DNA of 42,363 nt from contig JAAVXQ010000039.1 in NCBI GenBank assembly GCA_022790685.1, forward strand, positions 1 to 42,363, read 5' to 3'. Both the position numbers and the translations under genes were made by a program. This DNA comes from Clostridia bacterium. Lineage in GTDB: Bacteria > Bacillota > Clostridia > TANB77 > CAG-508. The notes under the pieces are model-generated. The model had not been told where the DNA came from and did no database searches. It worked only from the letters and a program-made list of their open reading frames with translations. The first letter of the stretch is position 1. The number at the start of each line of letters is the position of its first letter. This document shows, in pieces, positions 18,043-42,363 of the stretch.

Positions 18043-18067
18043 CAAATTTTAGAAAGGAAAAGTTAAA

Positions 18068-21164: not shown

Positions 21165-21172
21165 GAGGAAAT

Positions 21173-23348: not shown

Positions 23349-23571
23349 AAAAAGCCTCCTAAAAAGATATATATAAATTAATTATAGTAGTTATAATTTA
23401 AAAGTAAATGTCAAAAAATGTATTATATAAATTTATAAATCTATTACTTATAAATTCTATTCATAAACAAGAAAAAAATGTATATAAATTACTTGAAAAA
23501 AAAGTCATTGCAAGATATAATAGTTAAGTAAAAAAATACAAAGTTCCGTAAGAAAAAATGGAGGTAAATAG

Positions 23572-23829
23572 ATGGCAACTAAAGATAAAAATATTTGGAT
23601 ACTATTAATATTTATTTTGTCAGGACTAGTAGTAGGGGGATTACTTGGAGAACTTGCAACAAAAATATCTTGGCTATGGTGGTTAGGATATGGACAAGAG
23701 TTTGGGTTATCAAGCCCTGTAACTTTAGATATTAATATACTAAAAGTAACTTTTAGTGTGATTTTTAGAATAAATATAGCAAGTATAATAGGAATGGCAA
23801 TTTCAATATTTATATATAGAAAAGTTTAA
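23572..23829 (+). CDS. Small membrane protein (DUF4321-like)
   Basis: 85-aa product with two TM segments. Its position upstream of radC-mreB is as commonly seen in Clostridia. GGAGG SD. Confidence 0.55.
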   Translation: MATKDKNIWILLIFILSGLVVGGLLGELATKISWLWWLGYGQEFGLSSPVTLDINILKVTFSVIFRINIASIIGMAISIFIYRKV

Positions 23830-23864
23830 TAATTAAAGGCATAAAGTAAGCGGAAAGGATTTTT

Positions 23865-24539: not shown

Positions 24540-24551
24540 GCAGGAGGAAAT

Positions 24552-25572
24552 ATGAAATTTAATTTCGGTAAGGATATAGGAATTGATTTAGGTACAGCGA
24601 ATATTTTAGTAGCAATTAAGGGAAAAGGAATTATATATAGAGAACCCTCTGTTGTAGCTATAGATATTAAAACGAATGAAGTTATAGCATATGGATTAGA
24701 AGCAAGAGAAATGCTACGGGAGAACACCTACTAATATAAAAGCAATTAGGCCCTTAAAAGATGGAGTAATTGCTGATTTTACAGCAACTAAATTAATGCT
24801 TAAAGCAATAATGAATAAAATTTGTAGTAAATATAGAGTAATAAAACCAAGAGTAGTAGTTGGAGTTCCATCAGGAATAACAGAAGTTGAAGAAAGAGCA
24901 GTAGAAGAGGCAATTATTTCTAGTGGGGCAAGAAATGTTTTTGTAATAGATGAACCAATGGCTGCAGCAATAGGAGCAGGATTAGAAGTGTCTGAAGCAA
25001 AAGGAAATATTGTTGTAGATATTGGAGGAGGAACTACAGAAGTTGCTGTAATATCGTTAGGTGGAGTAGTTATAAGTGAATCTTTAAGAATTGCAGGAGA
25101 TGAAATAACAGAAAATATTATAAATTATATAAAAAGAAGGTATAATTTAACAATAGGGGAAGTAACTGCTGAAAATATAAAACAAGAGTTAGGCTGTGCA
25201 ATGCCACTTATGACAGAAACTGAGATGGAAATAAGAGGAAGAGACTTAAGTTCTGGATTCCCAAGTAGTGTAATAGTTACTTCAAGTGATATAGAACTTG
25301 CAATTAAAGAGCCAATAGAAAAAATAATAGAAACAGTAAAAACTACATTAGAACAAACACCACCAGAACTTGTTTCAGATATATCTGAGACAGGTATTAC
25401 TTTAACTGGTGGAGGTGCTTTAATAAAAAATTTAGATAAATTAATGAGTGAAAAGATGGAAACACCAGTATATATAGCAAATGAGCCATTAGATACAGTA
25501 GTAAATGGAACACTTGCTATGCTAGAAGATCTTGATAACTTAAAAAATATTTTAAAAAGGAATGTGATTTAG
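24552..25572 (+). pseudogene. mreB: Rod shape-determining protein MreB, split by an apparent +1 frameshift near 24717 (or a sequencing error)
   Basis: ORF 24552-24734 ([12 protein letters not shown]...EAREML) continues in the +1 frame as [21 protein letters not shown] and joins ORF 24796-25572. Deleting one base at 24716-24718 restores a full-length MreB. Confidence 0.85.
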
Positions 25573-25573
25573 A

Positions 25574-26389
25574 GTGAATAGAAATAAGCAAACTGAATTA
25601 TTAGGAGGAATAATTACATTAATTATACTTATATTATTAGTTTTTCTTTCTAATGTAGAAGTTAATAAGCTTTCTTATTTTGAAACAGCAGTAAATACAA
25701 TAATATCTCCAATTCAAAGAATAATAACAGATTTAAAAAACAAAATACAAGGAAATAGTGAATATTTTGCTAATATGGAGAAAATTCAGCAAGAAAATGA
25801 AGAATTAAGAACTCAAAATAGTGAACTAGAAACAAAATTAAGAGAGCTAGAAAGAATAAAAGCTGATAATATAACTCTTCAAGAATATATGAATTTAACA
25901 CAAAAATATGCCTCTTATACAACCATTCCAGCTTATGTTATAAATAAAGATGTAAGTAATTATAGTAGCAATTTAGTTATAAATGTAGGTACAAATGATG
26001 GAGTTCAGAAAAATATGACAGTAATTGCAGATAAAGGCTTAGTAGGACATGTTATTTCTGTAACTGAAAAAACAGCAAAAGTTCAAGTAATTATAGATCC
26101 AGCAAGTACAGTAAGTTCACAAATGAGCACATCAAATGAAAGTATTATTTGTAAAGGTACTTTAGATAATGATCAAGTTTTAAGAGCAAGCTATATACCA
26201 ACAGATGCAGAATTGATTAAAGGATATAGCTTAGAAACATCTGGACTTGGCGGAATATATCCAAAAGGAATTCATATAGGAACAATAGAAGAAATAATAA
26301 CAACAAGTAATATTATAGATAGATATGCTATAGTAAAGCCAGCTGTTGATTTTTCAAAGCTAAATACAGTTCTTGTAGTAACAGAGTAG
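25574..26389 (+). CDS. mreC: Rod shape-determining protein MreC
   Basis: TM anchor, coiled-coil segment (QQENEELRTQNSELETKLRELE) and a beta-rich C-terminal domain. It immediately follows mreB. GTG start. Confidence 0.85.
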   Translation: MNRNKQTELLGGIITLIILILLVFLSNVEVNKLSYFETAVNTIISPIQRIITDLKNKIQGNSEYFANMEKIQQENEELRTQNSELETKLRELERIKADNITLQEYMNLTQKYASYTTIPAYVINKDVSNYSSNLVINVGTNDGVQKNMTVIADKGLVGHVISVTEKTAKVQVIIDPASTVSSQMSTSNESIICKGTLDNDQVLRASYIPTDAELIKGYSLETSGLGGIYPKGIHIGTIEEIITTSNIIDRYAIVKPAVDFSKLNTVLVVTE

Positions 26390-26442
26390 TTTTAGAAAGG
26401 GAAAAGTATAATGGAGATTACATTATACTGTAAGGAAAGGGT

Positions 26443-26976
26443 ATGAAGAAACTTTTCATAATATTAGGACTAATATTAACGTTTTTTTTAATATATTTTT
26501 TACAAATTAACATATTTGCAAATCTTACAATAGCAGGAATTATGCCGAATTTATTTGTTATTTTTGTTTTGTTTGTGGGATTGTTTGCAAATTCTACACT
26601 AGGAATTATGACAGGAGTTTTTGTAGGCTTAATGTTAGACTTTATGTATGGAAAAGTTATAGGCATAAGTGCAGTAATGTACTGTATAGTAGGATATTTA
26701 GGAACATATTTTGATAAAAATTTCTCAAAAGAAAATAAACTTACAATTATATTAATGTGTGCAGGTGCAACATTAATATATGAAATAGGATATTATTTAT
26801 TAAGTTCTATAATAATAAATTTTGAGAGAGAATACATTTTATTTATAAAAAAGGTAGTAGTAGAAGTGATTTATAATATACTTCTTACAATTATACTATA
26901 TCCACTAATTCAAAAAGTAGGATTTAGTATGGATAGAATATTTAAAAGAAACAATGTGCTTACAAGATATTTTTAA
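26443..26976 (+). CDS. mreD: Rod shape-determining protein MreD
   Basis: Polytopic 177-aa membrane protein directly after mreC. Confidence 0.75.
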   Translation: MKKLFIILGLILTFFLIYFLQINIFANLTIAGIMPNLFVIFVLFVGLFANSTLGIMTGVFVGLMLDFMYGKVIGISAVMYCIVGYLGTYFDKNFSKENKLTIILMCAGATLIYEIGYYLLSSIIINFEREYILFIKKVVVEVIYNILLTIILYPLIQKVGFSMDRIFKRNNVLTRYF

Positions 26977-26997
26977 AAGAAAAGAGGGTGAAATATT

Positions 26998-29133
26998 CTG
27001 AAAAAGACAGAAACAGAAAAATCGAATTTTAGATATAACCTTATAACAACAATTGTATATTTGATAGGAATAATAATATTAATTCAGTTATTTAACCTTC
27101 AAATAGTGCATGGAGAAGAATATAGAGAAGATTCAAACACAAGGCTTACAAGAGAAGCTAAGATAGAGGCAGCAAGAGGAAGTATAATGGATAGAACAGG
27201 AAGCTTACTTATAAGTACAGAACAAGGTTTTTCTCTTGAAATGTATAAAACAAAAGTTGAAGATGAAGACTTAAATAATTCCATATTAATAATGACTGAT
27301 ATATTAGAAAAGAATCAAGATGAGTATATAGATGAATTTCCAATAAGTATAGATCCATTTGAGTATCATTTTGATTCAGAAGAAAAGTTAGCAGAATGGA
27401 AGAAAAAGAATAAGATACCAGAAGCTGCATCAGCAGAAGAAGCTTTTTATTTATTTAGAGATAAATATAAAATAAAAACAGAAGATATTAAACAAATAAG
27501 ACAAATATTAGCAATAAGATATTCAATTTCAACAGTTGGATATTCAAGTAAAAGATCAATACAAATATCAAAAGAGATAAAAAGAGAAACAGCAGTACAA
27601 TTGCAAGAAATGTCTAATGATTTAATTGGTATAACAATAGTTACAGAGCCAATAAGAAAATATCATATGGGAAGTTTAGCATCACACATCTTAGGATATA
27701 CTAGTAAAATAACAAAAGCCAATAAAGATGAATTTACATCCAGAGGAGATAGCTATGAATATGAAAATGATGACAAAGTAGGACAAACTGGAATAGAAAA
27801 AGTTTTTGAAGAGTACTTAAGAGGCGAAGATGGAGAAAAGCAAATAGATATGTCTGTTGATGGTACAATTACAGGAGAATATACTTCTAAAGAGGCAATA
27901 GGAGGAGCTAATATTGTTTTAACTATAGATGCTAATTTACAAAGAATTGCAGAACGAGCATTAAGAGATAATATAGAGAAAATCAGGTCAGGAGGATTTG
28001 CAGAACAAGCAGAAACAAAAGGAGGAGCCGTTGTAGTAGCTAATGTAAATACAGGTGAAGTATTAGCAATGGCAAGCTATCCAGATTATGAGCCAGAACT
28101 TTTCTATAATGGAATAAGTCAAGAAAAATATGATGAATATAGAAATAATCCATATTTTCCATTTATGAATAAAGCTATAAGTCCATATCCACCAGGTTCA
28201 ATTTTCAAAATGGTAACAGCAATTGCTGCATTAGATTCTGGAGTTACAACAACAACAGAAAAAATTAATGATAATGGACCTTATTATGGAATAACAGATG
28301 AACATGCTAATCCACCTGCATGTTGGTTATATAATACTTATGGAAGAGGACATGGAAGACTAGATATTTCAGGAGCAATACAAAATTCATGTAACTACTT
28401 TTTCTATGAAGTAAGTACAAGAATGGGAATTGATACTTTTAATGAATATTCAAAATTCTTTGGACTTGGAAGAAAAACAGGAATAGAACTTCCAGCTGAG
28501 ACCTCGGGAACATTAGCAGGAAAAGAAGCTGCGCAGAATACTTCAGAAAAATGGTGGTCTCCAGCAAAAACAGCTTATGCATCAATAGGTCAAAGTTTAA
28601 ATAGTTTTTCACCACTTCAAATGGTAAGATACATTTCAATGATAGCAAATGGCGGACATAAAGTAGATATGACTCTTGTAAAAAATGTAGTGACAGCAAA
28701 TGGAACTCAAATATCAAAAAATGAAATTGAAGAATTTGTAAATAAAAAATTACAAGTACCAGAAGACACGTCACAAAATTTTGAATTTAGCCAAGAGCAT
28801 ATAGAAGCAGTAAAAATGGGAATGAGAGCTGCAACAGACGAGCCGGGAGGTACAGCATATTCTGTATTTAAGAACTTTGATATAGAAGTAGCTGGAAAAA
28901 CAGGATCAGCAGAAACTGGAAAATCAAAAGAAGCAGATGTATACGCATGGTTTGCAGGATTTGCACCATATGATAATCCAGAAATAGCAGTTGTAGTAAT
29001 GGTTGAAAATGGAAGACATGGTTCATATACAGCAGAAGTAGTAAGAGATATAATTTCAGAATATTTTGGAATGAATGTTAAAGATGTAGTTGAAAATATG
29101 TCAGCAAGAAGTGAAATAGAATCATTTAGATAG
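26998..29133 (+). CDS. mrdA: Penicillin-binding protein 2 (elongasome transpeptidase)
   Basis: PBP dimerisation region plus a transpeptidase domain with SIFK (SxxK), SCN (SxN) and KTGS (KTG). The start is uncertain; see the finding on a non-canonical start (CTG 26998 or ATT 26995). Confidence 0.85.
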   Translation: MKKTETEKSNFRYNLITTIVYLIGIIILIQLFNLQIVHGEEYREDSNTRLTREAKIEAARGSIMDRTGSLLISTEQGFSLEMYKTKVEDEDLNNSILIMTDILEKNQDEYIDEFPISIDPFEYHFDSEEKLAEWKKKNKIPEAASAEEAFYLFRDKYKIKTEDIKQIRQILAIRYSISTVGYSSKRSIQISKEIKRETAVQLQEMSNDLIGITIVTEPIRKYHMGSLASHILGYTSKITKANKDEFTSRGDSYEYENDDKVGQTGIEKVFEEYLRGEDGEKQIDMSVDGTITGEYTSKEAIGGANIVLTIDANLQRIAERALRDNIEKIRSGGFAEQAETKGGAVVVANVNTGEVLAMASYPDYEPELFYNGISQEKYDEYRNNPYFPFMNKAISPYPPGSIFKMVTAIAALDSGVTTTTEKINDNGPYYGITDEHANPPACWLYNTYGRGHGRLDISGAIQNSCNYFFYEVSTRMGIDTFNEYSKFFGLGRKTGIELPAETSGTLAGKEAAQNTSEKWWSPAKTAYASIGQSLNSFSPLQMVRYISMIANGGHKVDMTLVKNVVTANGTQISKNEIEEFVNKKLQVPEDTSQNFEFSQEHIEAVKMGMRAATDEPGGTAYSVFKNFDIEVAGKTGSAETGKSKEADVYAWFAGFAPYDNPEIAVVVMVENGRHGSYTAEVVRDIISEYFGMNVKDVVENMSARSEIESFR

Positions 29134-29752: not shown

Positions 29753-29760
29753 AAGAGATA

Positions 29761-29788
29761 AAAACCATTCAATTTGAATGGTTTTTTT
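29761..29788. terminator. Bidirectional hairpin terminator between minC and the convergent gene
   Basis: AAAACCATTCAA/TTGAATGGTTTT palindrome with T runs on both strands. Confidence 0.7.
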
Positions 29789-29811: not shown

Positions 29812-30198
29812 CTATAAGATAAGTAGAACAAGAATGATTATTAGTATAAAGTCATAATCAGAGTTTTTAAAACTTTGAAAATTATTCATAGATTCTAGAG
29901 CAGTTAAAAGATTAGCAATCTTTACGTACTGCTCTAATTTTTCCTTTTTTGTATTCTCAAGATAAGGTTTTAAAGAATATAGAAGCTTATTTCTAGGAGA
30001 ATCTTTACTTTTGTTCATAGCAGTAAAGATATCTTTCATTTTTAATATAGTATCCATATCAAAAGAAAAATCGGAATTATTACTTTCTTCCGCATTTTCA
30101 CTATTATCAGAATTATTCATTATATTATTTAAATCTATATTTTTTTCTTTTAAAATATCTGAAAATTTATTTAAAACCTCTGAGAAATCTTCATTCAT
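29812..30198 (-). CDS. Hypothetical protein
   Basis: 128-aa product with an acidic Asn/Ser-rich N-terminal half and a hydrophobic C-terminus (FILIIILVLLIL). SD TGAGG. No family recognised. Confidence 0.5.
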   Translation of the reverse strand: MNEDFSEVLNKFSDILKEKNIDLNNIMNNSDNSENAEESNNSDFSFDMDTILKMKDIFTAMNKSKDSPRNKLLYSLKPYLENTKKEKLEQYVKIANLLTALESMNNFQSFKNSDYDFILIIILVLLIL

Positions 30199-30497: not shown

Positions 30498-30526
30498 TTT
30501 ACATAAAAACAAAAAAGTGATATAAT
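30498..30526 (+). promoter_or_regulatory. Putative strong sigma-70-type promoter for the giant surface-protein genes
   Basis: TTTACA 30498-30503, 17-nt spacer ending in TGA (an extended -10 TG), TATAAT 30521-30526. Confidence 0.55.
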
Positions 30527-30789: not shown

Positions 30790-33700
30790 ATGGAGAAAAT
30801 GGAAACAAAGTTAAGAAAAGTCTTAATATTAATAATTATTTTCATGATGATGTTTTCAAATTTTGGATTTACCATAAAAGCAATAGCTACATCAGATGAA
30901 TTCCAAGTAATTTCAAATGGATTTTTCAGAAAAGACGAAGTAAAATTTTCTGGATATTTTGAAAACGAAGATGGAAAGCAAACAAATGAAGTAATTAATA
31001 ATGCAAAACAAAGAGCAATTCTAAAATTTAATATTAAGCCTCAAGTAGAAGGGTATTTGAAAAACGCAAATATAAAGGCAGTAGCCACAGATGGCACTGA
31101 CTTAAATTTTAGATTTGTGTCTGCTAAAAACATGCTTGATGAAATAAATCAAGAAGAAGAGAAAGAAGATACACAGTTTGAAGTGAAAAATGAAAATAAA
31201 GATTTATCAGAAATTTCTGCTATGAACGAAATAGAAAATACAAGTTTAGAAAATTCTGTAAATGAAAATCAAGCATCAAATGTAATAAATGAGATTTCAA
31301 ATGATGCAAATGAAATATCAAACAGTGTATCAAAGGAATTAAATTCTAATACGGTGGAAAACAGTATTGCAAATGAGATAAGCAACAATACTGTTTCTAA
31401 TGATGTGCCTTTAGAAGAGGAAGAAGAATTTATAGATGAAGAGGAATATATAAAACAAGAACAAGAGACAGAAACAGAAGTAGAAAAAGAAAAACTAGTT
31501 TCTGATGTTAAACTTGTTAATGATAATGAAATTAGTCTTGTAAATATTCTAGAAGATACAACTTTAGAAGTAGTAATAGAATTTAATCAAAAAGACGAAA
31601 TAAATATAGCAGACTTATACAAAGAGATAAGCTTTAGATTAACAGGTACATATATAAATGTAAAGTTAGAAGAAGTTGATATAGCAAAAGAACAACTAAT
31701 GAACATTGGTTGGAAATATAGTAAAGATATCGAAGTTACAAGTGAATATACAAAATTTTCTCCATTTAAAATAGGTGAAGTAACAGGTATAATTGCTGAA
31801 AATAAAATAGTACTTGCAAGAAATATAGAAGATAGTAAATATTTACCTATAAAAAATACAAATATAGAAATAATGGTTCCTACAGTTAATGGAAAAATGC
31901 CAATGAGTGTAGATGTACAAGCCACAAAGTTGATGGCAACAAAAGGACAAGATAGTGGATATGTAGAATTTACAAATAACAATTGGACATATGATCAAAA
32001 TGAAGGAAAGATTATTATAAATGTAAATAATGACATAGATGGAAAAGCAAAAAATTCTTTAGGTGAAGACGAATACGTTATTATATATAGATTTGATGAA
32101 TATACAGAAAATGAAACTGTTAGATTAGATAGAAATGTAAAAGTAACAGTAGAAGAATATAGTGCAAAAGAAAATAGCATATTAGAAAAAACAATTGATG
32201 ATAATGTAGAAATACAAACTAATAAAGGTGAATTAATAACATATAGTATTAGCTCATCAGAAGAAAAAATAAATAAAGCTAAAATATATGCAAATTATAA
32301 CTCACCTGATGCACCATATGAAACAGAATATACAAGTAATATAAGATTAAATGTACTTACAAGTGACATGCTAGAGGAACTAAAAATAGATAGTTCAAAA
32401 GAATATTTTATAGATAAGAATGGAACAGAGCTTGAGGCTTCAGGAATTAAATACAAGAAAATGACATTTAACTATAATGATATAAAATCAACATTAGAAA
32501 AAGGTGGAGCAGTAGAAATATATTCATTAGAGGGAGCACTTATATATACACTAACAAAAGATTTAGTAAAATCACAAGATGATTGTACAATAAATATGAA
32601 TAATGAACCAGGAGTTATTATACAAGTAAGAGATGTATCAGCTAATGGAAAAATAGATGTAGAAATAACAAAAGCAATAGGAAGACCAGAAATAGACAAA
32701 TCAATATTTGCAAACTTTAGAAGAATAGAAAGCAGAATTACAGCAGAAGTAAAATATGCAAATATAGAAGAAAGATTAACACTTCCACTAATAGGAACAT
32801 CAAAAGAATTTGAAGAAAGTTATACAAAAGCTACATTAAGTATAAACAAACCAAATTTAACAACAATGCAAGAAAATGAGAATGTAGAGCTTAAAATAGA
32901 ACTTAACAATGATAGTCAAAAAAGTGACTTATATGTTAATCCAACATTTGAACTTGTTTATCCAAAACATATAAAAGAAGTTGAACTTGAAAGTATAAAT
33001 GTAATATATGATAGTGGTTTAACAGTAAAACATTTTGAAACATATAGAGATGGTGAAAACTTAAAAACAAGAATAGAGCTAGATGGAATTCAAACAAGCT
33101 TTATAGAAAACTCAATGACAAATGGTACAAATATAATTTTAAATACAAGAATGAAAATAGATGAATATACACCAAGAAAAGAAGATCAAATTAAACTTTA
33201 TTACTATAATGAAGGTGTAAGTAATTATCAAACACAAACAATGTGGAAAGTAAATAAAACTATTCCAAATAATATTTTAAAACAAACAAATGGATTTGAT
33301 GTAGCATTAATTAATTATCAAGCACCAGTTGGATTAATTGCTATAAATGGAATGAGAAATTATGATGGTGAAGGTTCAGAATTAAGATCTGTAAAACAAG
33401 GAACAATGACAAGACAAATCCAAAGAGAAAGAGCAGAAGTAAATACAACAATGGATTTATTAGTTCTTAACAATACAGGAAATGAATGCTCAGACATAAC
33501 AATGCTTGGAAGAGTACCTTTTAAAGGAAATAAAGATGTAATAACAGGAGAGAACTTAGGAACTAATATAGATGTAAGATTAGTAGGTTCTATTCAAGAA
33601 GACAGTGAAAATTCAGCTAAAGCAACAATATACTATTCAGCAAAAGCTGATGCAAATAAGAATTTAAATGATTCATCAAATGGATGGACAACAGATGTTC

Positions 33701-36585
33701 AAGATATGAGCAAAGTAAAATCTTATTTAATAGTAGTTGATGGAAAAGTTGAACCAGGAGCTTTCTTAAAATATACTTATGGATTTGTAATTCCAGAAAA
33801 TCTACCATATGAAGGAAAAATTGTAGGAAGCTTTGGAGCATATTATAACAATATAACAGATGTGGCTGTAGTGTATGAGAGTATGAATGCTGACAAAACT
33901 GTATTAGAAACAGAAAAAGGAGCTAAATTAGAAGCAAGATTAAATGTTGATATAGGTGATGGAGCAGATATACTAGAAGAAAGAAGAATGATGTATACAG
34001 TTACAGTAATAAATTCAGGAAGTGTTCCTATATCAGATATAACAATAACAAATCCAGTACCTAGATATACATACTATACAGAAAAAGGACCTGTAAGATA
34101 TGGTGATTATGGCTTTGAAGTTAAGGATGAAAAAGAAATAAAAGAAACAGGTATTACATTAGAGCCAGGAGCAACAAAAGAAATGACATATTACTTAACA
34201 GCTCAAAAAATACCAAATTTATCATCATATTGTGCAAGTATGGGAAATTCTGGTGAAGATGAAAATGGTGTGTATTATGAAAAAGTAGTTGGAACAGAAA
34301 TAGAAAAAATACCAAATACATATGTTGATGAAAATGGAGTTGAACATACAGAATATCAAGAAGTAATAAAAGATAAAATTGAAAAAGTGTATGTTTCAGA
34401 AGTGCCAGATGTGTATATAGAAAATAAAGCAACAATAGAAACACCACTTATAGCAGATAAAATAGAGACAAATACTGTAAGAAATAGAATGAAAAAAGCT
34501 AACTTTAGTTCAAGTTTAGCAATAGATTATGATAGACTTCTAGTTAAAGGTAGTGTAACAAATTATCAATTAACATTAAGAAATATATCAGGTAGAGATT
34601 TAGAAAATGCACAGGCTATATTTAATATAGGAGAAGGATTAGTTTTTGTAAAGGGAGAAGTACAAGGCACTGATATTACAGCAGATTACAATCAAGAAAC
34701 ACATAAAATATCATATGATATTGGTAAACTAGATAAAGATAGTTCTGTAACTATTAGTACAGAAGTACAAACAATTTCAGTAGATGAAGGAAGAAAGCAA
34801 ATAAATTGCTATTTTGAATTAAAAGCAGATGATGTTGCTACTGAATATAGTACAGTAATACCTCAATATATTGTAAAACCAAAATTATCTGTAGAAGACA
34901 TGACAGCAATTAAAAATACATATGGAGAAGAAGAGGTATTTACAGTAACTACAAAGATTACAAATGTTGGAGCAGATAGTTGTAAAAATGCAACTATTGA
35001 ATGTGAAATACCAAATGCAGTAACAATAAGAAGTGTAAAAGTTTCAGGAGATTCTAATGGAACTTTAGATGCCAATATTTCAACAGGAAAATTAGAATCA
35101 AAATTACCACTAATACCACCAGATAGAAGTATTATAGTGGATATAAACTTTAAAACACAAAACTTAGCAGGTTCAGATCCATCAAAAGTTATATTAACAA
35201 GAATTATAAAAAATGAAAATCAAACAGATATAAAAATAAATCCAGTAGAATTAACTGTAGAGAACAACTTAAAAACTATGGAAGAAAAAGAAAAAGAAAG
35301 AGAAGAAGAAAGAAAGCAAGAAGAAGAAAAAAATAAAGAAGATAAAAAAGATCAAACAGATAATACACAAAATAATAACCAAAATACAAATAATTCAAAT
35401 AATAATAACTCAAACAATAACTCAAATAATAATAACTCAAACAATAACTCAAATAATAATAGTACAAATAACAATTCAAATAATAATAATAATAACACAA
35501 ATAATAACAACTCAAATAATAATACACCTACAGTTCAAGAAGAAAAAACATATATGATAAAAGGTGTAGCATGGCTTGATAAAAATGCAGATGGAGTAAA
35601 AGACGAAAATGAAGAGAAACTAAAAAATATAAAAGTATATTTATTAGATGCTAAAACAAATGCAATGATAAAATCTGCAATGACAAATTCAAATGGAGAA
35701 TATCAATTCAGTGACTTAAAAAATGGAAGATATATTGTTGGCTTTGAATTTGATATGGATAAATATAAAATAACGAGCTATAAGAAATCAGGAGTTTCTG
35801 AAGAATTAAATTCGGATGTAACTGAAGCAGCAAATGCTAGAGGAACAAAAGAATCAATAAAAGCTGTAACAAATGAAATTACTATAAATAATGCAGATGT
35901 ATCAAATGTAAATATAGGATTAAAAGATGCAAAACAGTTTGATATAGAAATAAATAAATATTTATCAAAAGCAACAGTAATAAACAAAAAAGAGACAAAA
36001 GAATACAAATATGACAAAGCAGATATAGCTAAATTAGAAATACATTCAAAACAAATAAATAATTCAACAGTAAAATTAGAGTATGATATTGTTGTTAAAA
36101 ACATTGGAAATCTTGAAGGAACAGTACAAAAAATAGTAGATAGTTTTAGCTCAGATGTTGAATTTGACGAAAAAGATAATAAAGACTGGTATAAAGGAAA
36201 TGACGGAAAGATTTATAGTAAAAACCAAGATGGATTAACTTTAAAGCCGGGTGAAGAGAAAATACTAAAACTTGTAGTTACAAAGAAATTAGATGGAAAC
36301 AGCACAGGTTCATTAAGTAATAAAGCAATTTTAGAGCAAACAAATAGTAGTTCGGGTGAAGAAGAAGAGACAAAAAATAATACAAGCACACAAATTACAA
36401 TTATAACAGTTTCTACAGGTGGAAGAACAATAACAACAATTTTAATAGCAATTTTTGGAATAGCAGTTATAGGATTTATGTATATAAGTCCAAAAGTAAA
36501 TATAAACCTAGGTGATATAGGTAAGAAAAGTTATAAAGCTAAAAAAGAAACACTAAAGAAAAAATTAAAGAAAATTTATAAATAA
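30790..36585 (+). CDS. Giant (1931-aa) secreted, C-terminally anchored surface protein with DUF11/CARDB-like repeats, an Asn-rich spacer and an SdrD-B-like domain
   Basis: Features in order:
- signal peptide (KVLILIIIFMMMFSNFGFTIKAIA);
- acidic low-complexity region;
- DUF11-like segments (MMYTVTVINSGSVPISDITITNPVP; VTNYQLTLRNISGRDL; EVFTVTTKITNVGADS);
- NNNSNNNS spacer;
- SdrD-B-like GVAWLDKNADGVKDENEEKLKNIKVYLLD...NGEYQFSDLKNGRY;
- C-terminal TVSTGG, then TM (ITTILIAIFGIAVIGFMYI), then a Lys-rich tail.
The likely true start is ATG 30799, which has better SD spacing. Confidence 0.85.
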   Translation: MEKMETKLRKVLILIIIFMMMFSNFGFTIKAIATSDEFQVISNGFFRKDEVKFSGYFENEDGKQTNEVINNAKQRAILKFNIKPQVEGYLKNANIKAVATDGTDLNFRFVSAKNMLDEINQEEEKEDTQFEVKNENKDLSEISAMNEIENTSLENSVNENQASNVINEISNDANEISNSVSKELNSNTVENSIANEISNNTVSNDVPLEEEEEFIDEEEYIKQEQETETEVEKEKLVSDVKLVNDNEISLVNILEDTTLEVVIEFNQKDEINIADLYKEISFRLTGTYINVKLEEVDIAKEQLMNIGWKYSKDIEVTSEYTKFSPFKIGEVTGIIAENKIVLARNIEDSKYLPIKNTNIEIMVPTVNGKMPMSVDVQATKLMATKGQDSGYVEFTNNNWTYDQNEGKIIINVNNDIDGKAKNSLGEDEYVIIYRFDEYTENETVRLDRNVKVTVEEYSAKENSILEKTIDDNVEIQTNKGELITYSISSSEEKINKAKIYANYNSPDAPYETEYTSNIRLNVLTSDMLEELKIDSSKEYFIDKNGTELEASGIKYKKMTFNYNDIKSTLEKGGAVEIYSLEGALIYTLTKDLVKSQDDCTINMNNEPGVIIQVRDVSANGKIDVEITKAIGRPEIDKSIFANFRRIESRITAEVKYANIEERLTLPLIGTSKEFEESYTKATLSINKPNLTTMQENENVELKIELNNDSQKSDLYVNPTFELVYPKHIKEVELESINVIYDSGLTVKHFETYRDGENLKTRIELDGIQTSFIENSMTNGTNIILNTRMKIDEYTPRKEDQIKLYYYNEGVSNYQTQTMWKVNKTIPNNILKQTNGFDVALINYQAPVGLIAINGMRNYDGEGSELRSVKQGTMTRQIQRERAEVNTTMDLLVLNNTGNECSDITMLGRVPFKGNKDVITGENLGTNIDVRLVGSIQEDSENSAKATIYYSAKADANKNLNDSSNGWTTDVQDMSKVKSYLIVVDGKVEPGAFLKYTYGFVIPENLPYEGKIVGSFGAYYNNITDVAVVYESMNADKTVLETEKGAKLEARLNVDIGDGADILEERRMMYTVTVINSGSVPISDITITNPVPRYTYYTEKGPVRYGDYGFEVKDEKEIKETGITLEPGATKEMTYYLTAQKIPNLSSYCASMGNSGEDENGVYYEKVVGTEIEKIPNTYVDENGVEHTEYQEVIKDKIEKVYVSEVPDVYIENKATIETPLIADKIETNTVRNRMKKANFSSSLAIDYDRLLVKGSVTNYQLTLRNISGRDLENAQAIFNIGEGLVFVKGEVQGTDITADYNQETHKISYDIGKLDKDSSVTISTEVQTISVDEGRKQINCYFELKADDVATEYSTVIPQYIVKPKLSVEDMTAIKNTYGEEEVFTVTTKITNVGADSCKNATIECEIPNAVTIRSVKVSGDSNGTLDANISTGKLESKLPLIPPDRSIIVDINFKTQNLAGSDPSKVILTRIIKNENQTDIKINPVELTVENNLKTMEEKEKEREEERKQEEEKNKEDKKDQTDNTQNNNQNTNNSNNNNSNNNSNNNNSNNNSNNNSTNNNSNNNNNNTNNNNSNNNTPTVQEEKTYMIKGVAWLDKNADGVKDENEEKLKNIKVYLLDAKTNAMIKSAMTNSNGEYQFSDLKNGRYIVGFEFDMDKYKITSYKKSGVSEELNSDVTEAANARGTKESIKAVTNEITINNADVSNVNIGLKDAKQFDIEINKYLSKATVINKKETKEYKYDKADIAKLEIHSKQINNSTVKLEYDIVVKNIGNLEGTVQKIVDSFSSDVEFDEKDNKDWYKGNDGKIYSKNQDGLTLKPGEEKILKLVVTKKLDGNSTGSLSNKAILEQTNSSSGEEEETKNNTSTQITIITVSTGGRTITTILIAIFGIAVIGFMYISPKVNINLGDIGKKSYKAKKETLKKKLKKIYK
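35401..35454 (+). repeat. Perfect tandem duplication of a 27-nt unit within the Asn/Ser-rich low-complexity spacer (about 35380-35525)
   Basis: AATAATAACTCAAACAATAACTCAAAT at 35401-35427 is repeated exactly at 35428-35454, in frame. Confidence 0.9.
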
Positions 36586-36597
36586 GGGGGTGAGAAT

Positions 36598-39500
36598 ATG
36601 AAACAAAAATTAATGAAAAAGATATTAATATTAACAATGACATTAATAAGTGTTGTAGGAATAGGATATACAATTAAAACATTAGCAACTGTACAGATAG
36701 GAGTATTTAATGCTGGATATAATGAAGCAGTTGTTGGAGAGCCTATTAAAATGACAATAACTCAAGAATATTCTCACTTAAGAGAACCAGATAAAAATAT
36801 AGTACCTAATCCAATAAGAAGTTTTCCAGTAAATAAAAATGTGTTTAATACAAGTCAAGATTACTTCTGTATACAACATGGTGTACCTTATGCAATAGCG
36901 GCAAATGGACAACAATCTAAAGGAACAGCTGGACAATATCTTTCTGATTCTGGAATTCAATATATTTCAGGAGAGGGATTAAGAAATGGTAAATTAGATA
37001 ATTATAATAATCCAGATGGAATTGGTTATGGAAACTATCATACAGGAGCATTTGATATAAGTTCTGATATAAAAATAAATGAAGATCCTTCTTTGTCATA
37101 TGATAGTAGAACAGCGAATACAACAGCACTTACTAATAAAGGTTTTCAAGGATATAGAGAAGATGAACCAGCAGAAACTCCTGTTGATACAGTATATTCA
37201 AATTATGTATATAAAACTAAAAAGTTTGAATTTGGATGTATTGAAAAATCAGGAGATCATTGTGAAAGAAAAGTAGAAGTACCAGAAACATTTAATTCAA
37301 CTCAAGGTGATGAAGGATTTGATGAAGGATTAGCATTTTTATTAGCCAGATATAAAATAACTCCAAGAGGCTCATATTCAAACGATCCTTTACAACATGC
37401 TGTATGGGCTACATTAGGACAATATAGTGGTGGAGAAGCTTATATTAAAGATTATGTACTAAAAGAAGCGAGAGAAAGCTTTGATAAATATCATAAAGAA
37501 GCAACAGAAAAGATGGTAGATGTAATACCAAGTGATGATGTTGGCACAGTATTATCAAATGGTAATTATGTAGTTGGACCATTTAAAATGAATGATTATA
37601 TTAGAGCAGAAGATTATAATTATACAGTAGGTGGTTCAATACATTCAAGTTATTTACCAGGAGACGAAGGAGAAGATGATGAAACAATAGATATTGATAT
37701 GCCAAAAACTCAGGAAAACTTACAAAAAATATTTTATAGGACTGATTCTAATAATCCAACAAGTATTACAGAAAAGAAAGAATTATATGGTGGTATATTA
37801 AGAGCTTGGGTTGTATTTAATGATGGAAGTATATATGAATTTGCAAAATGGGAAGATAAAAATGTTCCTGCACCAGGTAAAGAATTTAAAATAGAAATAC
37901 CAACATCAGCAGTTAATGATGGAGCAGATGAAATTATAGATATAGTATTTGAATATCAAATAATTCATGCATATGGTGAAGGTGAAACATATATAGGTAG
38001 ACAAATAAGAGTTAGTTGGAATAAAAAGCAAGATACAAGTGGAGGATGCACAGAATATAAAACAAACTATCCTGGAGAAACAGGTTTATGTTCTTATCAT
38101 GGGGTTAATGCAGGACCATTTACAAGTACTACAGGAGGATGGCAAGATACTACTCATAACCATATTCATGATTGCGATGATTTCTATCATGGACATGGAT
38201 GTGCAGGGGGACACTATAGTTCTTCTTGCCATGCTTGTAATTGTACAGGACATGGAACAGGTCCTGATAAAACATATTGCTCTTGTTCTGGTCATAAAAA
38301 GGCAGGATGCCATTGTTCGTGTCCAGGACATACATGTTCACATACTAAAAATATGTTATTCTTATGCGATCATAAACATGTTAAATGTCAAATGTTTGAT
38401 TGGCAAGCAAATAATATTTCATATGATGCATGTCAAGATGGTGCAACATTACAAGGAAAGCTTTCAAATGAAATTGTAGAATATTCAATAAAAGTAAATG
38501 TGCCATTAAAAACAGATATGTCTATATATAAATATATTAGTAAAGTAGAACATAATGATATAGCAGAGCATAAAACTTGTAACCATACATATAATGGTGG
38601 AACAGAAAGAAGAGATTGGGAAATTGCAGTAAAAGAAGCAGACCCAGTAAAAGTTGAAAGAGGAGATATTGTAACATATACAATTGAACTTGTAAATAAT
38701 TCAAAATTTCCAACCGAAGTTCTGGTGCAAGATACTCTGCCAGATGATATATTAGATGAAGATAGAAGTGACATTAGAATAAGATGGCATTATGAAACAG
38801 TTGCAAATGACTGGATTACAATACAACCATATAGTACAGAAACTTTTGAAGTAACAGTAGTTGTAGACTCAATGTCAGGAAAGTATGTAAACTCAGTTGA
38901 ATTTGTATCAACAAATGATAAAGAACCACATATGAGATATGAACATTGGGGAGATGGGGCAACACATGGACCACACGAACATGGTTGGATAGTAAACATC
39001 AACAATAAAATACAAGATGAAGATTGGTATGAAGTAAAAGAATATAAAGTAAATATTGACAAATATATTTCTGATGTAGAACATACAGAAGTAAAATCTT
39101 CATATGATTCTACAATGCCAGAAAGTGATGCTAGATCAAAATTCAATATGAGTGAAAGTGATAAACAAAAAGCACCAGTATATGTTGAATATGGTGATAT
39201 AGTTACATATACAATAAAAATATATAATACAACAAATAAGTATGATAGCTCATTTGATAGAACAAAAGCCCCACACTGGGAACCAGAAGTTGTATATGTA
39301 GATATTGAAGACACTTTACCAGTAAACTGTATATTACAATCAATAGATGTAGATGATACATATACACAAAGAGAAGCAACAAATGAACATGTATACTTAG
39401 ATGATGTTAGAGTTGAAGAAGATGCAGTTACAACAATAACAATAAAAGTAATGGTAAATGATGTAAAAAGAACAACAGTAAGAGAAAATAATGTAATAAT

Positions 39501-42363
39501 ACTAAATGATAAAATTGAAAATATAAACAGAGAAATAATCCTAAATCATACAGATAAAGACGATACAAGTGATTGGTATAAATTAAATGATTATGACATA
39601 GATATTGACAAATATATAAGTGCATATAATGGTTCTATGATGAAAGAAAACAATAGAATAGGATTCACAGAAAATGAAACATCAACAATAGATGATAAAG
39701 GATTTACAAATACTGGAGCAACAAATCAAGCAGATAGAGAAGATTTAGACAGAGTTGATTTGACAGATGCATACAAAAAAGATTATCCAGTAGAAGTTGA
39801 AAAAACAGAAGAAGTTATTTACTCTATAAAATTAGAAAATCATAAAACCAAATTAGGAAGTCAAGATGCAGTAGCAACAGGTTCACAACCAGGCACACAA
39901 GTTAGACCAACAAAGATAACTGATACTTTACAAACAGGTTTAGAGTTCCAAGAAGTAAAAGGCGTAAAATATGAAGCTGATGGAACTAAAGTAGCAGATG
40001 TACAAGTAACAGCAACACCAATAGGAAATAATACATATGAATTTACAATAGGAAATGGAAACGAAACAATATTAGATCCTGGACAATTTATGGTTTACTA
40101 TGTAAGAGTTAAAATAACAGAAAGCAATATGTATTTATTAACACTAGAAAATTCAGCAGTTATAACAACACTAACAAATATAAATCATAATCCAGATATA
40201 GAGGAAAGAATTGTAAAAGACCCAGATAATCCAAATATTGATGAGAATATCTCTCCTCAAAAAGAATCAAAAGAATATGTAAAACTAAAAGAGTTAATAA
40301 TGGCAGGTAAAGTATTCTTAGATGCAGATAAAAATGGATATATGGAAACAGAAAATGATAAAAACAGATTTAATAATATAACAGTTAAATTGTATAGAAG
40401 AGATGGAGATGGAACAGCAAAACAAGTAGGAGAGAAAAAGACAGGAACTAATAAATTAGGAGAAAACGGTTTCTATACATTTGAAAGAGTTGACAAAGCA
40501 GATGATAAACAACATGCAACAAAAGTTAATGACTACTATGAAAAAGATGGCGTATATACAGCAAACAGTAAACTTTATGAATATTATATAGAATTTGAAT
40601 ATGATGGTGTAGCATATAAAGCAACAGAAGTATATGGAGGAAGAACAGAAGATGTTAATCCAAACTTTGGAGATAATAATATAACAGAAAAATGGCTTCC
40701 AACAGACCCTGATGCAGAAAAATATATCACAGATTCAAATGCATATGAATTTACAGATATAAGAGATGCATTTAATAGAAATTATGAGACAATAGGATAT
40801 AACAAGGCATATAAATCAGGAGAAGATACAAATAATAAGACTGAAACTGCAGCTCTAACATACACAAAGAAAGGCCATACATCACTATTAGATGTTGTTG
40901 AAGCTCCAAATGCACAAAATCATCCAGAAAGAGTAATGACATCAAGAACCTTTATAAAGAAAGAAGTTGTACCAGTAGATGGAGAACCATCAAGCTTTAA
41001 AGATAAAGGAATAGAACAAGACCTAGGATATCCTGGAAGTTTAGGCTATGGTAAAAATTTAGGAAATACAAAAACTTTATGGCTATATAAACAAGGAGCA
41101 GACTATAAATTACCAGAAACAGAATATTTAAAATATATGAACTTAGGTTTAGTTGAAAGAGAAGATGTTAATATATCACTTGTAAAAGATGTATACTCAG
41201 TAACAACAACAGTAAATGGTGAGCAGATAACATATGACTATAATAAAAACGGTGTAAAGAATAATGAAATATTAATAAAAGGAAATGCACCTGTAACATC
41301 AGAAGAAGCACAAGGAGCGACAGGAACAGAATTTAATGAATCAAATGGAAAATATATTGACAATCAAAAATATGGCTTAGAATTATATGAATCAGATTAT
41401 TACTATAGAGTTGAGCAATATGAGCATCAAGCAGTAAGAGATTATAAAACAATATACAGTGAACTTAATATTGAAGTAACATTTAGAATTACAATAACAA
41501 ATGAAGAAATTATACAAGATGAATTAAACATGAGAGATGTTGATAGAGAAGTTATTGTAACTATAGATGAAATTGCAGATTACTATGATGAAAACTTTGT
41601 TGAATATACAGATAACATTGAATCAGCATACAAAGCAAAACTTGGAACACCAAATGAAGATTCAGATTATAAATATATGACACAAGAAGAGGCTGATACT
41701 TTAGATGATTCTGTAGCAGTTAAAATAAAAGTAAAAGTACCGGATGAGGAAAATATTGCAAGAGATCCAGGTTCAACAAAATTAATAGACAGAAAGCTAG
41801 AAGTTGTAAAAGCATGGTACTATAAAGATGGAACAACAAATCCAACAGGATTAATTGTAACAAATAAATCAAACTATAATCCAGAACGTGTAAGTAAAAA
41901 TGGAGAGGCAGATGGATATAGAAAACTATATATTAGAGGCTTTAATAAAGTTCAACTACATGAAGGAGAAAGCATAGATTTATATGTAAAATATATAGTG
42001 GATAAAGAAGCAGCTGGAAATATTTTAAGTATGACATCAGGTGATTCAAGAAACTTAAAAATAGCAGAAAGATTAACAAAAGGTGAATTTGGTAGAGGAC
42101 AAGAAGGAATTGCAGAAATAAGTGCATACTCTACTTGGTATCAAGAATATGATACAACAAAGAGTCCAGCAACAAATAAAGGAAATGAACTAAAACCAGC
42201 AGGACTTGTTGACAGAAATTCAAATCCAGATAACTTAGGGGATGACAATTCAGGAGCAGAGGTATCTGTAGACGAAATAGGATTCTATGAAGATGATACA
42301 TATAAAACAGGTATAGAAATGACAGTTCCTAAACCAGAAAATCCACCAAATAAACCAAATCCA
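36598..42363 (+). CDS. Second giant secreted protein (at least 1922 aa, 3' end outside the window): thioester-domain adhesin-like head, Cys/His-rich module, three ~180-aa repeat modules and an SdrD-B-like domain
   Basis: Not in the ORF track. GGGGG SD lies 7 nt before ATG 36598. I read every codon to 42363 without a stop. Signal peptide MKQKLMKKILILTMTLISVVGIGYTIKTLA. The motifs are detailed in the findings. Confidence 0.85.
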   Translation, partial: MKQKLMKKILILTMTLISVVGIGYTIKTLATVQIGVFNAGYNEAVVGEPIKMTITQEYSHLREPDKNIVPNPIRSFPVNKNVFNTSQDYFCIQHGVPYAIAANGQQSKGTAGQYLSDSGIQYISGEGLRNGKLDNYNNPDGIGYGNYHTGAFDISSDIKINEDPSLSYDSRTANTTALTNKGFQGYREDEPAETPVDTVYSNYVYKTKKFEFGCIEKSGDHCERKVEVPETFNSTQGDEGFDEGLAFLLARYKITPRGSYSNDPLQHAVWATLGQYSGGEAYIKDYVLKEARESFDKYHKEATEKMVDVIPSDDVGTVLSNGNYVVGPFKMNDYIRAEDYNYTVGGSIHSSYLPGDEGEDDETIDIDMPKTQENLQKIFYRTDSNNPTSITEKKELYGGILRAWVVFNDGSIYEFAKWEDKNVPAPGKEFKIEIPTSAVNDGADEIIDIVFEYQIIHAYGEGETYIGRQIRVSWNKKQDTSGGCTEYKTNYPGETGLCSYHGVNAGPFTSTTGGWQDTTHNHIHDCDDFYHGHGCAGGHYSSSCHACNCTGHGTGPDKTYCSCSGHKKAGCHCSCPGHTCSHTKNMLFLCDHKHVKCQMFDWQANNISYDACQDGATLQGKLSNEIVEYSIKVNVPLKTDMSIYKYISKVEHNDIAEHKTCNHTYNGGTERRDWEIAVKEADPVKVERGDIVTYTIELVNNSKFPTEVLVQDTLPDDILDEDRSDIRIRWHYETVANDWITIQPYSTETFEVTVVVDSMSGKYVNSVEFVSTNDKEPHMRYEHWGDGATHGPHEHGWIVNINNKIQDEDWYEVKEYKVNIDKYISDVEHTEVKSSYDSTMPESDARSKFNMSESDKQKAPVYVEYGDIVTYTIKIYNTTNKYDSSFDRTKAPHWEPEVVYVDIEDTLPVNCILQSIDVDDTYTQREATNEHVYLDDVRVEEDAVTTITIKVMVNDVKRTTVRENNVIILNDKIENINREIILNHTDKDDTSDWYKLNDYDIDIDKYISAYNGSMMKENNRIGFTENETSTIDDKGFTNTGATNQADREDLDRVDLTDAYKKDYPVEVEKTEEVIYSIKLENHKTKLGSQDAVATGSQPGTQVRPTKITDTLQTGLEFQEVKGVKYEADGTKVADVQVTATPIGNNTYEFTIGNGNETILDPGQFMVYYVRVKITESNMYLLTLENSAVITTLTNINHNPDIEERIVKDPDNPNIDENISPQKESKEYVKLKELIMAGKVFLDADKNGYMETENDKNRFNNITVKLYRRDGDGTAKQVGEKKTGTNKLGENGFYTFERVDKADDKQHATKVNDYYEKDGVYTANSKLYEYYIEFEYDGVAYKATEVYGGRTEDVNPNFGDNNITEKWLPTDPDAEKYITDSNAYEFTDIRDAFNRNYETIGYNKAYKSGEDTNNKTETAALTYTKKGHTSLLDVVEAPNAQNHPERVMTSRTFIKKEVVPVDGEPSSFKDKGIEQDLGYPGSLGYGKNLGNTKTLWLYKQGADYKLPETEYLKYMNLGLVEREDVNISLVKDVYSVTTTVNGEQITYDYNKNGVKNNEILIKGNAPVTSEEAQGATGTEFNESNGKYIDNQKYGLELYESDYYYRVEQYEHQAVRDYKTIYSELNIEVTFRITITNEEIIQDELNMRDVDREVIVTIDEIADYYDENFVEYTDNIESAYKAKLGTPNEDSDYKYMTQEEADTLDDSVAVKIKVKVPDEENIARDPGSTKLIDRKLEVVKAWYYKDGTTNPTGLIVTNKSNYNPERVSKNGEADGYRKLYIRGFNKVQLHEGESIDLYVKYIVDKEAAGNILSMTSGDSRNLKIAERLTKGEFGRGQEGIAEISAYSTWYQEYDTTKSPATNKGNELKPAGLVDRNSNPDNLGDDNSGAEVSVDEIGFYEDDTYKTGIEMTVPKPENPPNKPNP
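36850..37410 (+). other. Putative Cys-Gln thioester domain (TED/TQXA-like) of the second giant protein
   Basis: DYFCIQHG (Cys91, TGT 36868-36870) and DPLQHAVWATLG (Gln266, CAA 37393-37395) fit the two conserved TED motifs with appropriate spacing. Confidence 0.6.
38047..38433 (+). other. Cys/His-rich module: 16 Cys and 15 His in 129 residues
   Basis: Counted codon by codon. It includes three C-x-C-x-G-H motifs (CNCTGH, CSCSGH, CSCPGH). Confidence 0.9.
40300..40755 (+). other. SdrD-B-like domain in the second giant protein
   Basis: AGKVFLDADKNGYMETENDKNRFNNITVKLYRRDGDG...GENGFYTFERV...YYIEFEYDGVAYKATEVY...TDSNAYEF. Confidence 0.6.

Follow-up and report, generated by a model that had tools for sequence, protein, structure and literature searches.

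A 2777-residue membrane-anchored surface protein of uncultured gut Clostridia with a head resembling thioester domains in its motifs

Among bacterial adhesin heads, thioester domains (TEDs) are, to our knowledge, alone in binding their targets covalently, and their development as protein-ligation tools is under way. The reactive Cys of a TED is carried by a β-strand in a [YFL]C-Φ-ζ motif, whereas the T motif, TQxx-Φ-W (earlier TQxA(I/V)W), is central and α-helical; the Gln and Trp of the T motif form hydrogen bonds with the backbone of the Cys and are dispensable for the thioester bond. The Gln that forms this bond is located further downstream, on a β-strand, in a weak ΦQζΦΦ motif, and only the two residues of the thioester, Cys and Gln, are universally conserved in canonical TEDs (PMC4450167, PMC6194298). 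In class II TEDs, a β region is followed by three helices and then by a β-sandwich, and in class I TEDs the thioester Gln is found on a hairpin about 10 residues past helix 3 (PMC6194298). The TED encoded by plasmid pLS20 has support from mutagenesis (PMC8092201), and several TED clusters were missed by Pfam in a survey (PMC9210967). A typical stalk component of fibrillar adhesins is CLIPPER, a CnaA-like domain by crystallography, in which a Lys-Asn isopeptide bond is formed with catalysis by an Asp (PMC12617251). Here, we describe a giant gene that starts at position 36598 of the forward strand of a 42,363-nucleotide stretch of DNA from a Clostridia bacterium (contig JAAVXQ010000039.1; the whole stretch is referred to as the window) and runs off its 3′ end. 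A first-pass annotation based on the letters of the window had proposed that this gene encodes a covalent-binding adhesin with a Cys91-Gln266 thioester.

The ATG at 36598 lies 7 nt downstream of a ribosome-binding site, GGGGG (36586 to 36590), and 12 nt past the TAA of an upstream giant gene (36583 to 36585); these and all other features of the gene are on the plus strand. The ATG opens a frame (frame 1) of 1922 codons that reaches the end of the window at 42363 with 0 stops. The remaining five frames of the same interval contain 73 to 271 stops each, and the probability that 1922 codons are free of stops by chance is ~1e-80 at the composition of the region (A, 44%; T, 26%). Re-reading the letters thus bore out the start, the spacing, and the stop-free frame proposed by the first-pass annotation, as well as its explanation for the absence of the gene from the supplied open reading frame (ORF) track, since the ORF lister skips ORFs that run off the end of the source. 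Truncated ORFs of this kind escape ORF listings that demand a stop codon. The downstream sequence sought by the first-pass annotation was found: the public protein P0001 comprises 2777 residues and is identical to the window translation but for one difference (V19I), the window holding codons 1 to 1922, or the first 69%, of the gene. The complete gene occupies positions 10001 to 18334 of the public contig L001 (36.6 kb), which overlaps the window, and the mature protein has a computed mass of ~311 kDa and a computed pI of 4.7. The giant gene is real and intact. We refer to it as B type and to its upstream neighbor as A type.

The family to which the protein belongs is rare, and its architecture is conserved. 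Twelve homologues, all unnamed, comprise 2700 to 2885 residues and display 31 to 36% identity across nearly the whole length. When the head domain was the query of an exhaustive HMMER profile search, only 35 clusters (50% identity) were retrieved from 1.84 billion representative proteins, and most of these clusters contain proteins of 2400 to 3400 residues. An alignment of the heads of 29 members (18 to 35% identity) was used to evaluate conservation.

The head comprises residues 31 to 308 (36688 to 37521) and consists of a β region followed by three predicted helices. Cys91 (codon 36868-36870) of the sequence DYFCIQHG is located in the β region within a C motif, F-C-I-Q (36865 to 36876), that fits the [YFL]C-Φ-ζ consensus (PMC4450167). 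Gln266 (codon 37393-37395), in NDPLQHAVWATLG, belongs with Trp270 (codon 37405-37407) to a T-motif-like sequence, P-L-Q-H-A-V-W (37387 to 37407). Both Cys91 and Gln266 are at the positions initially reported. Downstream, residues 309 to 475 (37522 to 38022) are predicted to form a long β-hairpin (GPFKM) and a β-sandwich, with predicted local distance difference test (pLDDT) values of 85 to 94. The residues invariant in the 29 heads are C91, Q266, W270, G327, P328 (the last two being part of the hairpin), and P424. Across the family, the context of the Cys is [FY]-C-x-[QE..]-[HRK]-G, also written FC[AIV][QE], the Q or E being mostly found two residues after the Cys. The context of the Gln and Trp is [DN]-P-x-Q-x-A-Φ-W, in which the Ala is present in 25 of the 29 members and L, A, G, or R stands in place of the Thr of the T motif; the hairpin sequence Y-x-[VI]-G-P-[FI]-x-M follows ~55 to 65 residues further on. 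All three motifs are also present in B′, a paralogue encoded downstream of the B-type gene on contig L001 (YDYFCCYHGG, SDVQKAWW, and YYKIGPFSIDY). The mean column identity of the head (0.23 to 0.35) is the lowest in the protein, versus 0.5 to 0.6 in the stalk. Since the head is otherwise the least conserved part, the invariant Cys, Gln, and Trp stand out as functional, and the low conservation around them fits a ligand-binding tip, as expected.

The first-pass annotation had placed the bond-forming Gln of TEDs in a hydrophobic-Q-x-A-[IV]-W motif. This merges two motifs, because QxA[IV]W is the T motif, whose Gln does not form the bond. Gln266 is therefore not a canonical bonding partner, as it matches the T motif and lies in a predicted helix. 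The description of the protein as an adhesin head on a very long stalk stands insofar as it concerns a secreted protein with an N-terminal head that contains an invariant Cys and a Q-x-A-[IVM]-W motif, whereas the covalent pairing of Cys91 with Gln266 is not supported. The only candidate that resembles the ΦQζΦΦ motif is Q454 (FEYQIIH), which is located on a confidently predicted strand of the β-sandwich after the helices. Replacement by Arg, Lys, or Met in many members rules out Gln454 as a family-wide thioester partner. A [ST]-N-x-x-Y strand motif, with an Asn aligned at position 202 in 26 of the 29 members, is a possible alternative partner; a simple pattern scan missed the motif in some members.

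A first AlphaFold model (residues 28 to 340, 10 sequences) had a pLDDT of 30 and was discarded. A second model (residues 28 to 479, 23 sequences) reached a predicted template modeling (pTM) score of 0.69, with pLDDT values of ~76 around the Cys, 68 to 80 in helices 1 and 2, and 85 to 94 in helix 3 and most of the sandwich. The predicted helices span residues 242 to 252, 264 to 272, and 289 to 304 (model numbering plus 27), and QxAVW is on the second of these (model residues 237 to 245). The predicted order, namely, a β region, three helices, a long hairpin, and a β-sandwich, mirrors the layout of class II TEDs. The head thus appears TED-like by its motifs and by its predicted secondary-structure order, although its membership was not confirmed and one defining feature is missing.

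The first-pass annotation could not name any architecture for the rest of the protein. This was correct for over 80% of the full-length protein (2777 residues), for which no curated family match was found, but CLIPPER/DUF11 modules, SdrD_B-like modules, and a membrane anchor can be named. CLIPPER/DUF11 module 1 (residues 640 to 800; 38515 to 38997) contains a K645/D712/N765 triad present in 27 of 27 members. Its core (residues 678 to 777) matched PF01345 with 31.2 bits when scanned alone and with 24.5 bits in the scan of the 1922 residues (cutoff, 24.6) and matched TIGR01451 with 31.2 to 34.6 bits (cutoff, 24). The triad of the CLIPPER-like module 2 (residues 815 to 995; 39040 to 39582), K822/D905/N964, is kept wherever the module is present (23 to 24 of 27). 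For that of CLIPPER-like module 3 (residues 998 to 1200; 39589 to 40197), K1005/D1109/N1185, the Lys and Asn are found in 27 of 27 members and the Asp, or a Glu, also in 27 of 27. Modules 2 and 3 had no match when scanned against hidden Markov models (HMMs) of curated families; the DKYIS, DTL[PQ], and N-x-[AV]-x-[IV] motifs recur in the three modules. The conserved residues make it most likely that isopeptide bonds form within the molecule at the Lys/Asp/Asn triads. CLIPPER (DUF11) adhesins, such as Acinetobacter B9T28_05395 (PDB 9IFR), resemble the protein by the score of module 1 above the PF01345 and TIGR01451 thresholds, the invariant Lys/Asp/Asn triads, the tandem position of the modules in the stalk, and a size of more than 2000 residues. 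They differ by a Lys-Asp spacing of 33 residues, versus 67 to 104 residues in the B-type protein as the result of insertions, by the location of modules 2 and 3 of the latter below HMM detection, and by another head and anchor.

The CLIPPER-type modules are followed by an SdrD_B-like module with a large insertion (residues 1230 to 1525; 40285 to 41172), which extends from AGKVFLDADKNG to KYMNLGLVER and was delineated by motifs and invariant residues. Two such modules with large insertions are present in the full-length protein, starting at residues 1237 and 1939 and ending with KYMNLGLVER and VNFGIEYRPE, respectively. The GKVF/GRVW-D-D-x-(D/N)-G starts and the N-x-G-L ends are shared with SdrD_B domains (PF17210) of staphylococcal MSCRAMMs, and profile matches are found in the partner A-type protein as well as in some homologues. 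In P0002, a homologue, the corresponding region matched SdrD_B weakly, and PF17210 is precomputed for P0003 and P0013. Unlike the staphylococcal domains, the modules of the B-type protein have insertions of hundreds of residues each, and no SdrD_B profile match was obtained in the protein itself. A conserved stalk region with no family match (residues 1526 to 1902; 41173 to 42303) then leads to the start of a Pro-rich linker, PKPENPPNKPNPDPDPDPDP (42304 to 42363), which runs past the window. The C-terminal part beyond the window comprises a Pro/Asp linker, the second SdrD_B-like start (SGRVWDD), and ~700 unmatched residues. In P0001, FNGQDYKSTKY, NDARDDExDR, and TGRRTNFxTT[IV]GN, the last of which shortly precedes the anchor, are strongly invariant in the stretches of residues 2070 to 2120 and 2680 to 2700 of the C-terminal half, which has no match; these motifs may be further cross-link or metal sites.

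A presumably extracellular Cys/His-rich insert (residues 478 to 610; 38029 to 38427), with 15 Cys and 15 His residues within 120 residues, separates the head from the stalk and includes sequences such as HGHGCAGGHYSSSCHACNCTGHGTG and CHCSCPGHTCSH. The insert is present in all relatives with a variable sequence and ends in an invariant C590-x-H592-x-H594-x-x-C597 motif. It has no curated family match; the invariant motif suggests a metal site, and the insert is probably metal binding.

The N terminus (residues 1 to 30; 36598 to 36687) was judged by eye to be a Sec signal peptide, as the first-pass annotation had suggested, with an n-region rich in Lys, a hydrophobic core, and a c-region that reads TLA/T, a pattern common to the homologues. 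The C terminus, ...TFTPPTGLTRTDRAIRKVVEKSSQT-LMIVAVGAFVVAVAIFTTRFITI-KIKKRRIK, consists of a single transmembrane helix and a basic tail. No LPXTG-type signal was found in the 2777-residue protein, which did not match LPXTG-anchor models, and no sortase gene was found within the window. TPPTG at residue 2724 is the sole xPxTG sequence near the C terminus and is separated from the transmembrane helix by 16 to 17 partly charged residues. Its Thr is replaced by Gln in other members (IPPQG), in which only P-P-x-G is invariant. The nonconserved Thr and the long spacer rule out TPPTG as a sortase signal. Cleavage of TPPTG by a Pro-Pro endopeptidase would be mere speculation, since the P3′ Pro typical of the sites of these enzymes is absent and the Thr is not conserved. 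We infer that the protein is exported by its Sec signal and that a single C-terminal helix with KKRRIK, rather than a sortase acting on LPXTG, anchors it in the membrane.

We consider, with a probability of roughly 0.55, that the protein is a fibrillar adhesin that is stabilized by isopeptide bonds and displays a divergent TED-like head. The head-stalk-anchor architecture is well supported; what is uncertain is the TED-like head, together with its chemistry. The long secreted protein displays the head-stalk-anchor layout of fibrillar adhesins: an N-terminal head would be projected from the membrane on a long stalk comprising three CLIPPER/DUF11-type Ig modules, SdrD_B-like modules, the Cys/His insert, and over 1000 residues without any match. 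The head would most likely be related to the TEDs of Gram-positive TIE adhesins but strongly diverged from them, with Cys91 as the reactive residue and with Gln266 and Trp270, on the middle helix, lining the Cys site in the manner of the T motif of known TEDs. The thioester partner in this protein, if any, would be Gln454 more likely than Gln266, by analogy with the bond-forming strand of class II TEDs, whereas Gln266 would be the partner if the chemistry were family-wide. Thioester formation is not assured, since position 454 is not conserved in the family. The covalent chemistry, the ligand, and adhesion are putative.

Several results weigh against this reading. The TED/TQXA profile match that the first-pass annotation had proposed as a check was not obtained: TED (PF08341), TED_2 (PF20610), and TQXA from Pfam and NCBIfam did not match the protein or 23 diverse heads at an E value of ≤10. 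However, this negative outcome carries little weight, because the proven TED of TIEpLS20, used as a control, passed the Pfam cutoffs by less than 2 bits (28.8 bits for a cutoff of 27 and 23.6 bits for a cutoff of 22). TIEpLS20 was also not linked to BaTIE by phmmer and reached SaTIE as a profile only with an E value of 0.049. Weak Pfam matches to Stork_head, FAM25, Fae, and Tfb4 were subthreshold and biologically irrelevant and were rejected. No recognized TED protein was present among the 35 clusters retrieved with the head profile. Sequence and profile searches of the PDB, for which the queries were the entire protein, the two head alignments, and the CLIPPER region, were empty or gave chance matches (antibody, RNA ligase). 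A comparison by HHalign with a narrow TED_2 profile of nine sequences was not significant (probability, 0.5%; E value, 0.11). Toward a broader TED profile, a homologue search with the pLS20 TED had given 1 match, a genome scan 2 near-identical Bacillus loci, and a three-sequence profile 10 matches. In favor of the TED-like reading, the nonsignificant HHalign alignment was colinear, with the C motif on the C motif, QxAVW on the T motif, and the sandwich strand FYIxIP on GQSFYFTAPL. The best local match to this narrow profile paired the two T motifs over 9 columns (E value, 0.021).

Structural comparisons also weigh against the preferred reading. The N-lobe near the Cys is partly of low confidence in the second model, its large loops having pLDDT values below 50, and Foldseek comparison of this model with the PDB gave no match at an E value of <0.03, with BaTIE (6FWV) at rank 23 and a TM score of 0.15. 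The top Foldseek matches, staphylococcal superantigen-like proteins, had root mean square deviations of ~19 Å and TM scores of ~0.1 and were considered meaningless. For the bond-forming residue, position 454 is a Gln in 16 to 17 members, an Arg or Lys in 11 to 12, and a Met in the paralogue; no Gln besides Q266 is conserved, no other Gln column reaching 60% of the members; and the hairpin after helix 3 (..YxVGPFKM..) has no conserved Gln. The family thus inverts the canonical conservation, since the Gln and Trp of the T motif are invariant and the position of the bond-forming Gln is not. Retention of the Cys and of the helper Gln and Trp could reveal which residues the chemistry needs or could reflect another covalent or thiol binding mode. 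For this inverted pattern, the protein would be of interest to the field of thioester and isopeptide adhesins; it is not categorically new.

The bonded Cys91-Gln266 pair of the first-pass annotation, which would attack host amines as in a canonical thioester domain, appears improbable. Both residues are invariant in the 29 heads, and Gln266 would be the only candidate if the whole family made a thioester, because no other Gln is conserved. Their proximity would be expected from the contact between the T-motif Gln and the Cys backbone of known TEDs. Against the pair, the Gln of QxA(I/V)W is nonbonded and dispensable in every characterized TED, Q266 is predicted to lie in an α-helix whereas bond-forming Gln residues are on a β-strand, and TED HMMs, profiles, and folds gave no match; a bond between the two residues would amount to a rewired rather than a canonical thioester. 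A somewhat less unlikely possibility is a third, unrecognized class of thioester-type head, in which the Cys would be combined with the helix-borne Gln of the T motif in such a rewired arrangement or would act as a stand-alone warhead with no thioester at all; in both cases, the head would be carried by giant membrane-anchored, isopeptide-stabilized fibers encoded by the conserved A/B gene pairs next to the cell-shape genes. Doubtful as well, but to be taken more seriously, is a head unrelated to TEDs, with a new fold at the tip of what would still be a surface fiber, the Cys serving as a free thiol in disulfide or metal-mediated binding or as the nucleophile of an unrecognized enzyme and the likeness of the motifs being convergent or coincidental. 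The homology tests, all negative or insignificant, and the missing bond-forming Gln favor this explanation, as does the spacing between the Cys and QxAxW, which is 105 to 175 residues in the family and 54 to 71 residues in the class II TEDs examined. Nonetheless, two motifs in the right order, the second of which is on the middle of three helices with a hairpin and a sandwich after them, constitute a specific match to the TED layout. Moreover, no His, Asp, or Asn is invariant in the head alignment (His94 is present in only 22 of the 29 members) that could complete a triad of the Cys-protease or transglutaminase type, and Foldseek detected no papain, NlpC/P60, or transglutaminase match. A cysteine protease or transglutaminase head is ruled out on these grounds.

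The last alternative concerns the fiber rather than its head. The A- and B-type giants could be structural envelope fibers, acting as a surface layer, as a spacer, or in cell-cell cohesion, that are tied to cell wall growth and are not host adhesins. Their strict synteny, which places them beside genes for shape and division both here and in 6 of 6 loci from metagenome-assembled genomes (MAGs), their anchoring in the membrane and not in the wall, and the C-terminal style common to both types (xTG, transmembrane helix, and basic tail ending in [YI]K) are in favor of such a role. A neighborhood alone is weak evidence, however, and the giants diverge faster than their neighbors (33 to 48% identity versus 65% for PBP2), with the greatest variability at the tip, a signature of surface-exposed proteins that face ligands or the immune system. 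The combination of CLIPPER, SdrD_B, and a head on a stalk is also typical of fibrillar adhesins (PMC12617251, PMC9210967), and we regard the structural role as unlikely.

For the TED-like adhesin that we favor, the closest described systems are the class II TIE proteins, represented here by BaTIE (6FWV), SaTIE-TED (6FX6), EfmTIE86, and TIEpLS20 (from plasmid pLS20). These are likewise secreted Gram-positive surface proteins with an N-terminal head, a [YFL]C-Φ-ζ Cys, a Q/W motif on the central of three helices followed by a β-sandwich, and an isopeptide-type Ig stalk. In SaTIE, AFCIEP is followed by ATQMLIWELLG (PLQHAVWATLG in the B-type protein) and the thioester Gln is 117 residues further on; in TIEpLS20, VYCIDP is followed by KTYVALNNWLDG and then by SYQRLM. 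In addition to the lack of HMM, profile, or fold matches and to the reversed conservation described above, the B-type protein differs from this class by its size (2777 versus ~550 to 800 residues), by a transmembrane anchor in place of LPXTG, and by its Cys/His-rich insert. Class I TEDs (SfbI, FbaB, and Cpa of Streptococcus pyogenes and CpTIE/Cpe0147 of Clostridium perfringens) share the logic of the C and T motifs, and the B-type protein also has a conserved hairpin after helix 3. Unlike in class I, this hairpin has no conserved Gln, the stalk is of the CLIPPER type and not composed of ester/CnaB repeats, and there are neither fibronectin-binding repeats nor an LPXTG motif.

Genome scans identified relatives in six loci of uncultured gut Clostridia MAGs from human, chicken, water deer, mouse, and Hadza samples, the chicken relative being assigned to Candidatus Scatovivens (Clostridiaceae). 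In 6 of 6 of these loci, PBP2 is followed by a gap, an A-type gene (1924 to 2045 residues), a B-type gene (2461 to 2963 residues), and a further large ORF. In size, the proteins rank with the largest surface structures of this clade, which was found in samples of human, mouse, chicken, and ruminant origin, and their fast evolution at the tip makes them candidates for attachment factors to the host, to mucus, or to partner cells.

In the window, the A-type gene (30790 to 36585, plus strand) encodes 1931 residues with a signal peptide, a long stalk with an SdrD_B domain, and a C terminus in which ..VSTGG precedes a transmembrane helix and a tail rich in Lys. Just before the SdrD_B domain is a long low-complexity tract of Asn and Ser, NNNQNTNNSNNNNSNNNSNNNNSNNNSNNNSTNNN... 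(35300 to 35560; residues ~1505 to 1590), which is itself preceded by a Glu/Lys-rich stretch. The two window giants were considered as mutual paralogues, a relationship that was rejected because BLASTP similarity was limited to the level of the signal peptide. The C termini of the B type read TL[TS]PPTGL, 16 residues, a transmembrane helix, and KKRR[IY]K, and those of the A type read [IV][ST][VI][SAK]-T-G, a transmembrane helix, and a Lys-rich tail ending in ...[FIV]YK; the common style is a hint that sorting or anchoring may follow a dedicated route. On contig L001, the B-type gene is followed by a paralogue of the A-type gene (A′; 19006 to 24231; 1741 residues) and by a paralogue of the B-type gene itself (B′; 24235 to 28334; at least 1366 residues read, 2210 residues called). 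The alternating giants A, B, A′, and B′ are placed after mreBCD-PBP2-minC in every related MAG, and an A/B unit would have been duplicated and conserved at this position across the clade. Between the window and L003, one of the MAG loci, identity is 65% for PBP2, 42 to 48% for the A proteins, and 33 to 38% for the B proteins, indicating that the giants evolve much faster than their neighbors.

The best promoter-like site 5′ of the two-gene unit, TTTACA-17-TATAAT with a TG (30498 to 30526, plus strand), is intergenic and matches at 11 of 12 positions. It is the sole such match in its region but a candidate only, since promoter-like matches overall equal the number expected by chance. Downstream of minC is a perfect inverted repeat of 12 bp (29760 to 29786) that is flanked by T-runs and resembles a bidirectional terminator. 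Across this hairpin from minC lies a convergent 128-residue ORF (29812 to 30198) with no family match. No terminator was found in the 12-nt gap between the A- and B-type genes. The terminator after minC, the candidate promoter, and the lack of a terminator between the two genes are consistent with cotranscription, and the B-type gene is probably cotranscribed with the 1931-residue upstream gene.

The window is ordinary chromosome of a spore former, with a G+C content of 24 to 31%. It encodes HlyIII, Germane, a protein of the EPSP_synthase family that is probably MurA, SpoIIR, a LexA-like HTH/S24 repressor, VanW, CpsB, a Wzz/tyrosine-kinase protein, an M23 peptidase, MecA, RadC, MreBCD, PBP2, and MinC. 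The mreB gene (24560 to 25572) is frameshifted, its N-terminal 60 codons being in one frame and the rest in another. One extra C at ~24717 (ctaCggg) accounts for the split, as an assembly error or as a real disruption of an essential gene. Finally, a 987-residue ORF (9243 to 12206) combines a UTP-glucose-1-phosphate uridylyltransferase (UDPGP) with a complete phosphoglucomutase (PGM_PMM I-IV) and would be a fusion for the two-step synthesis of a UDP-sugar.

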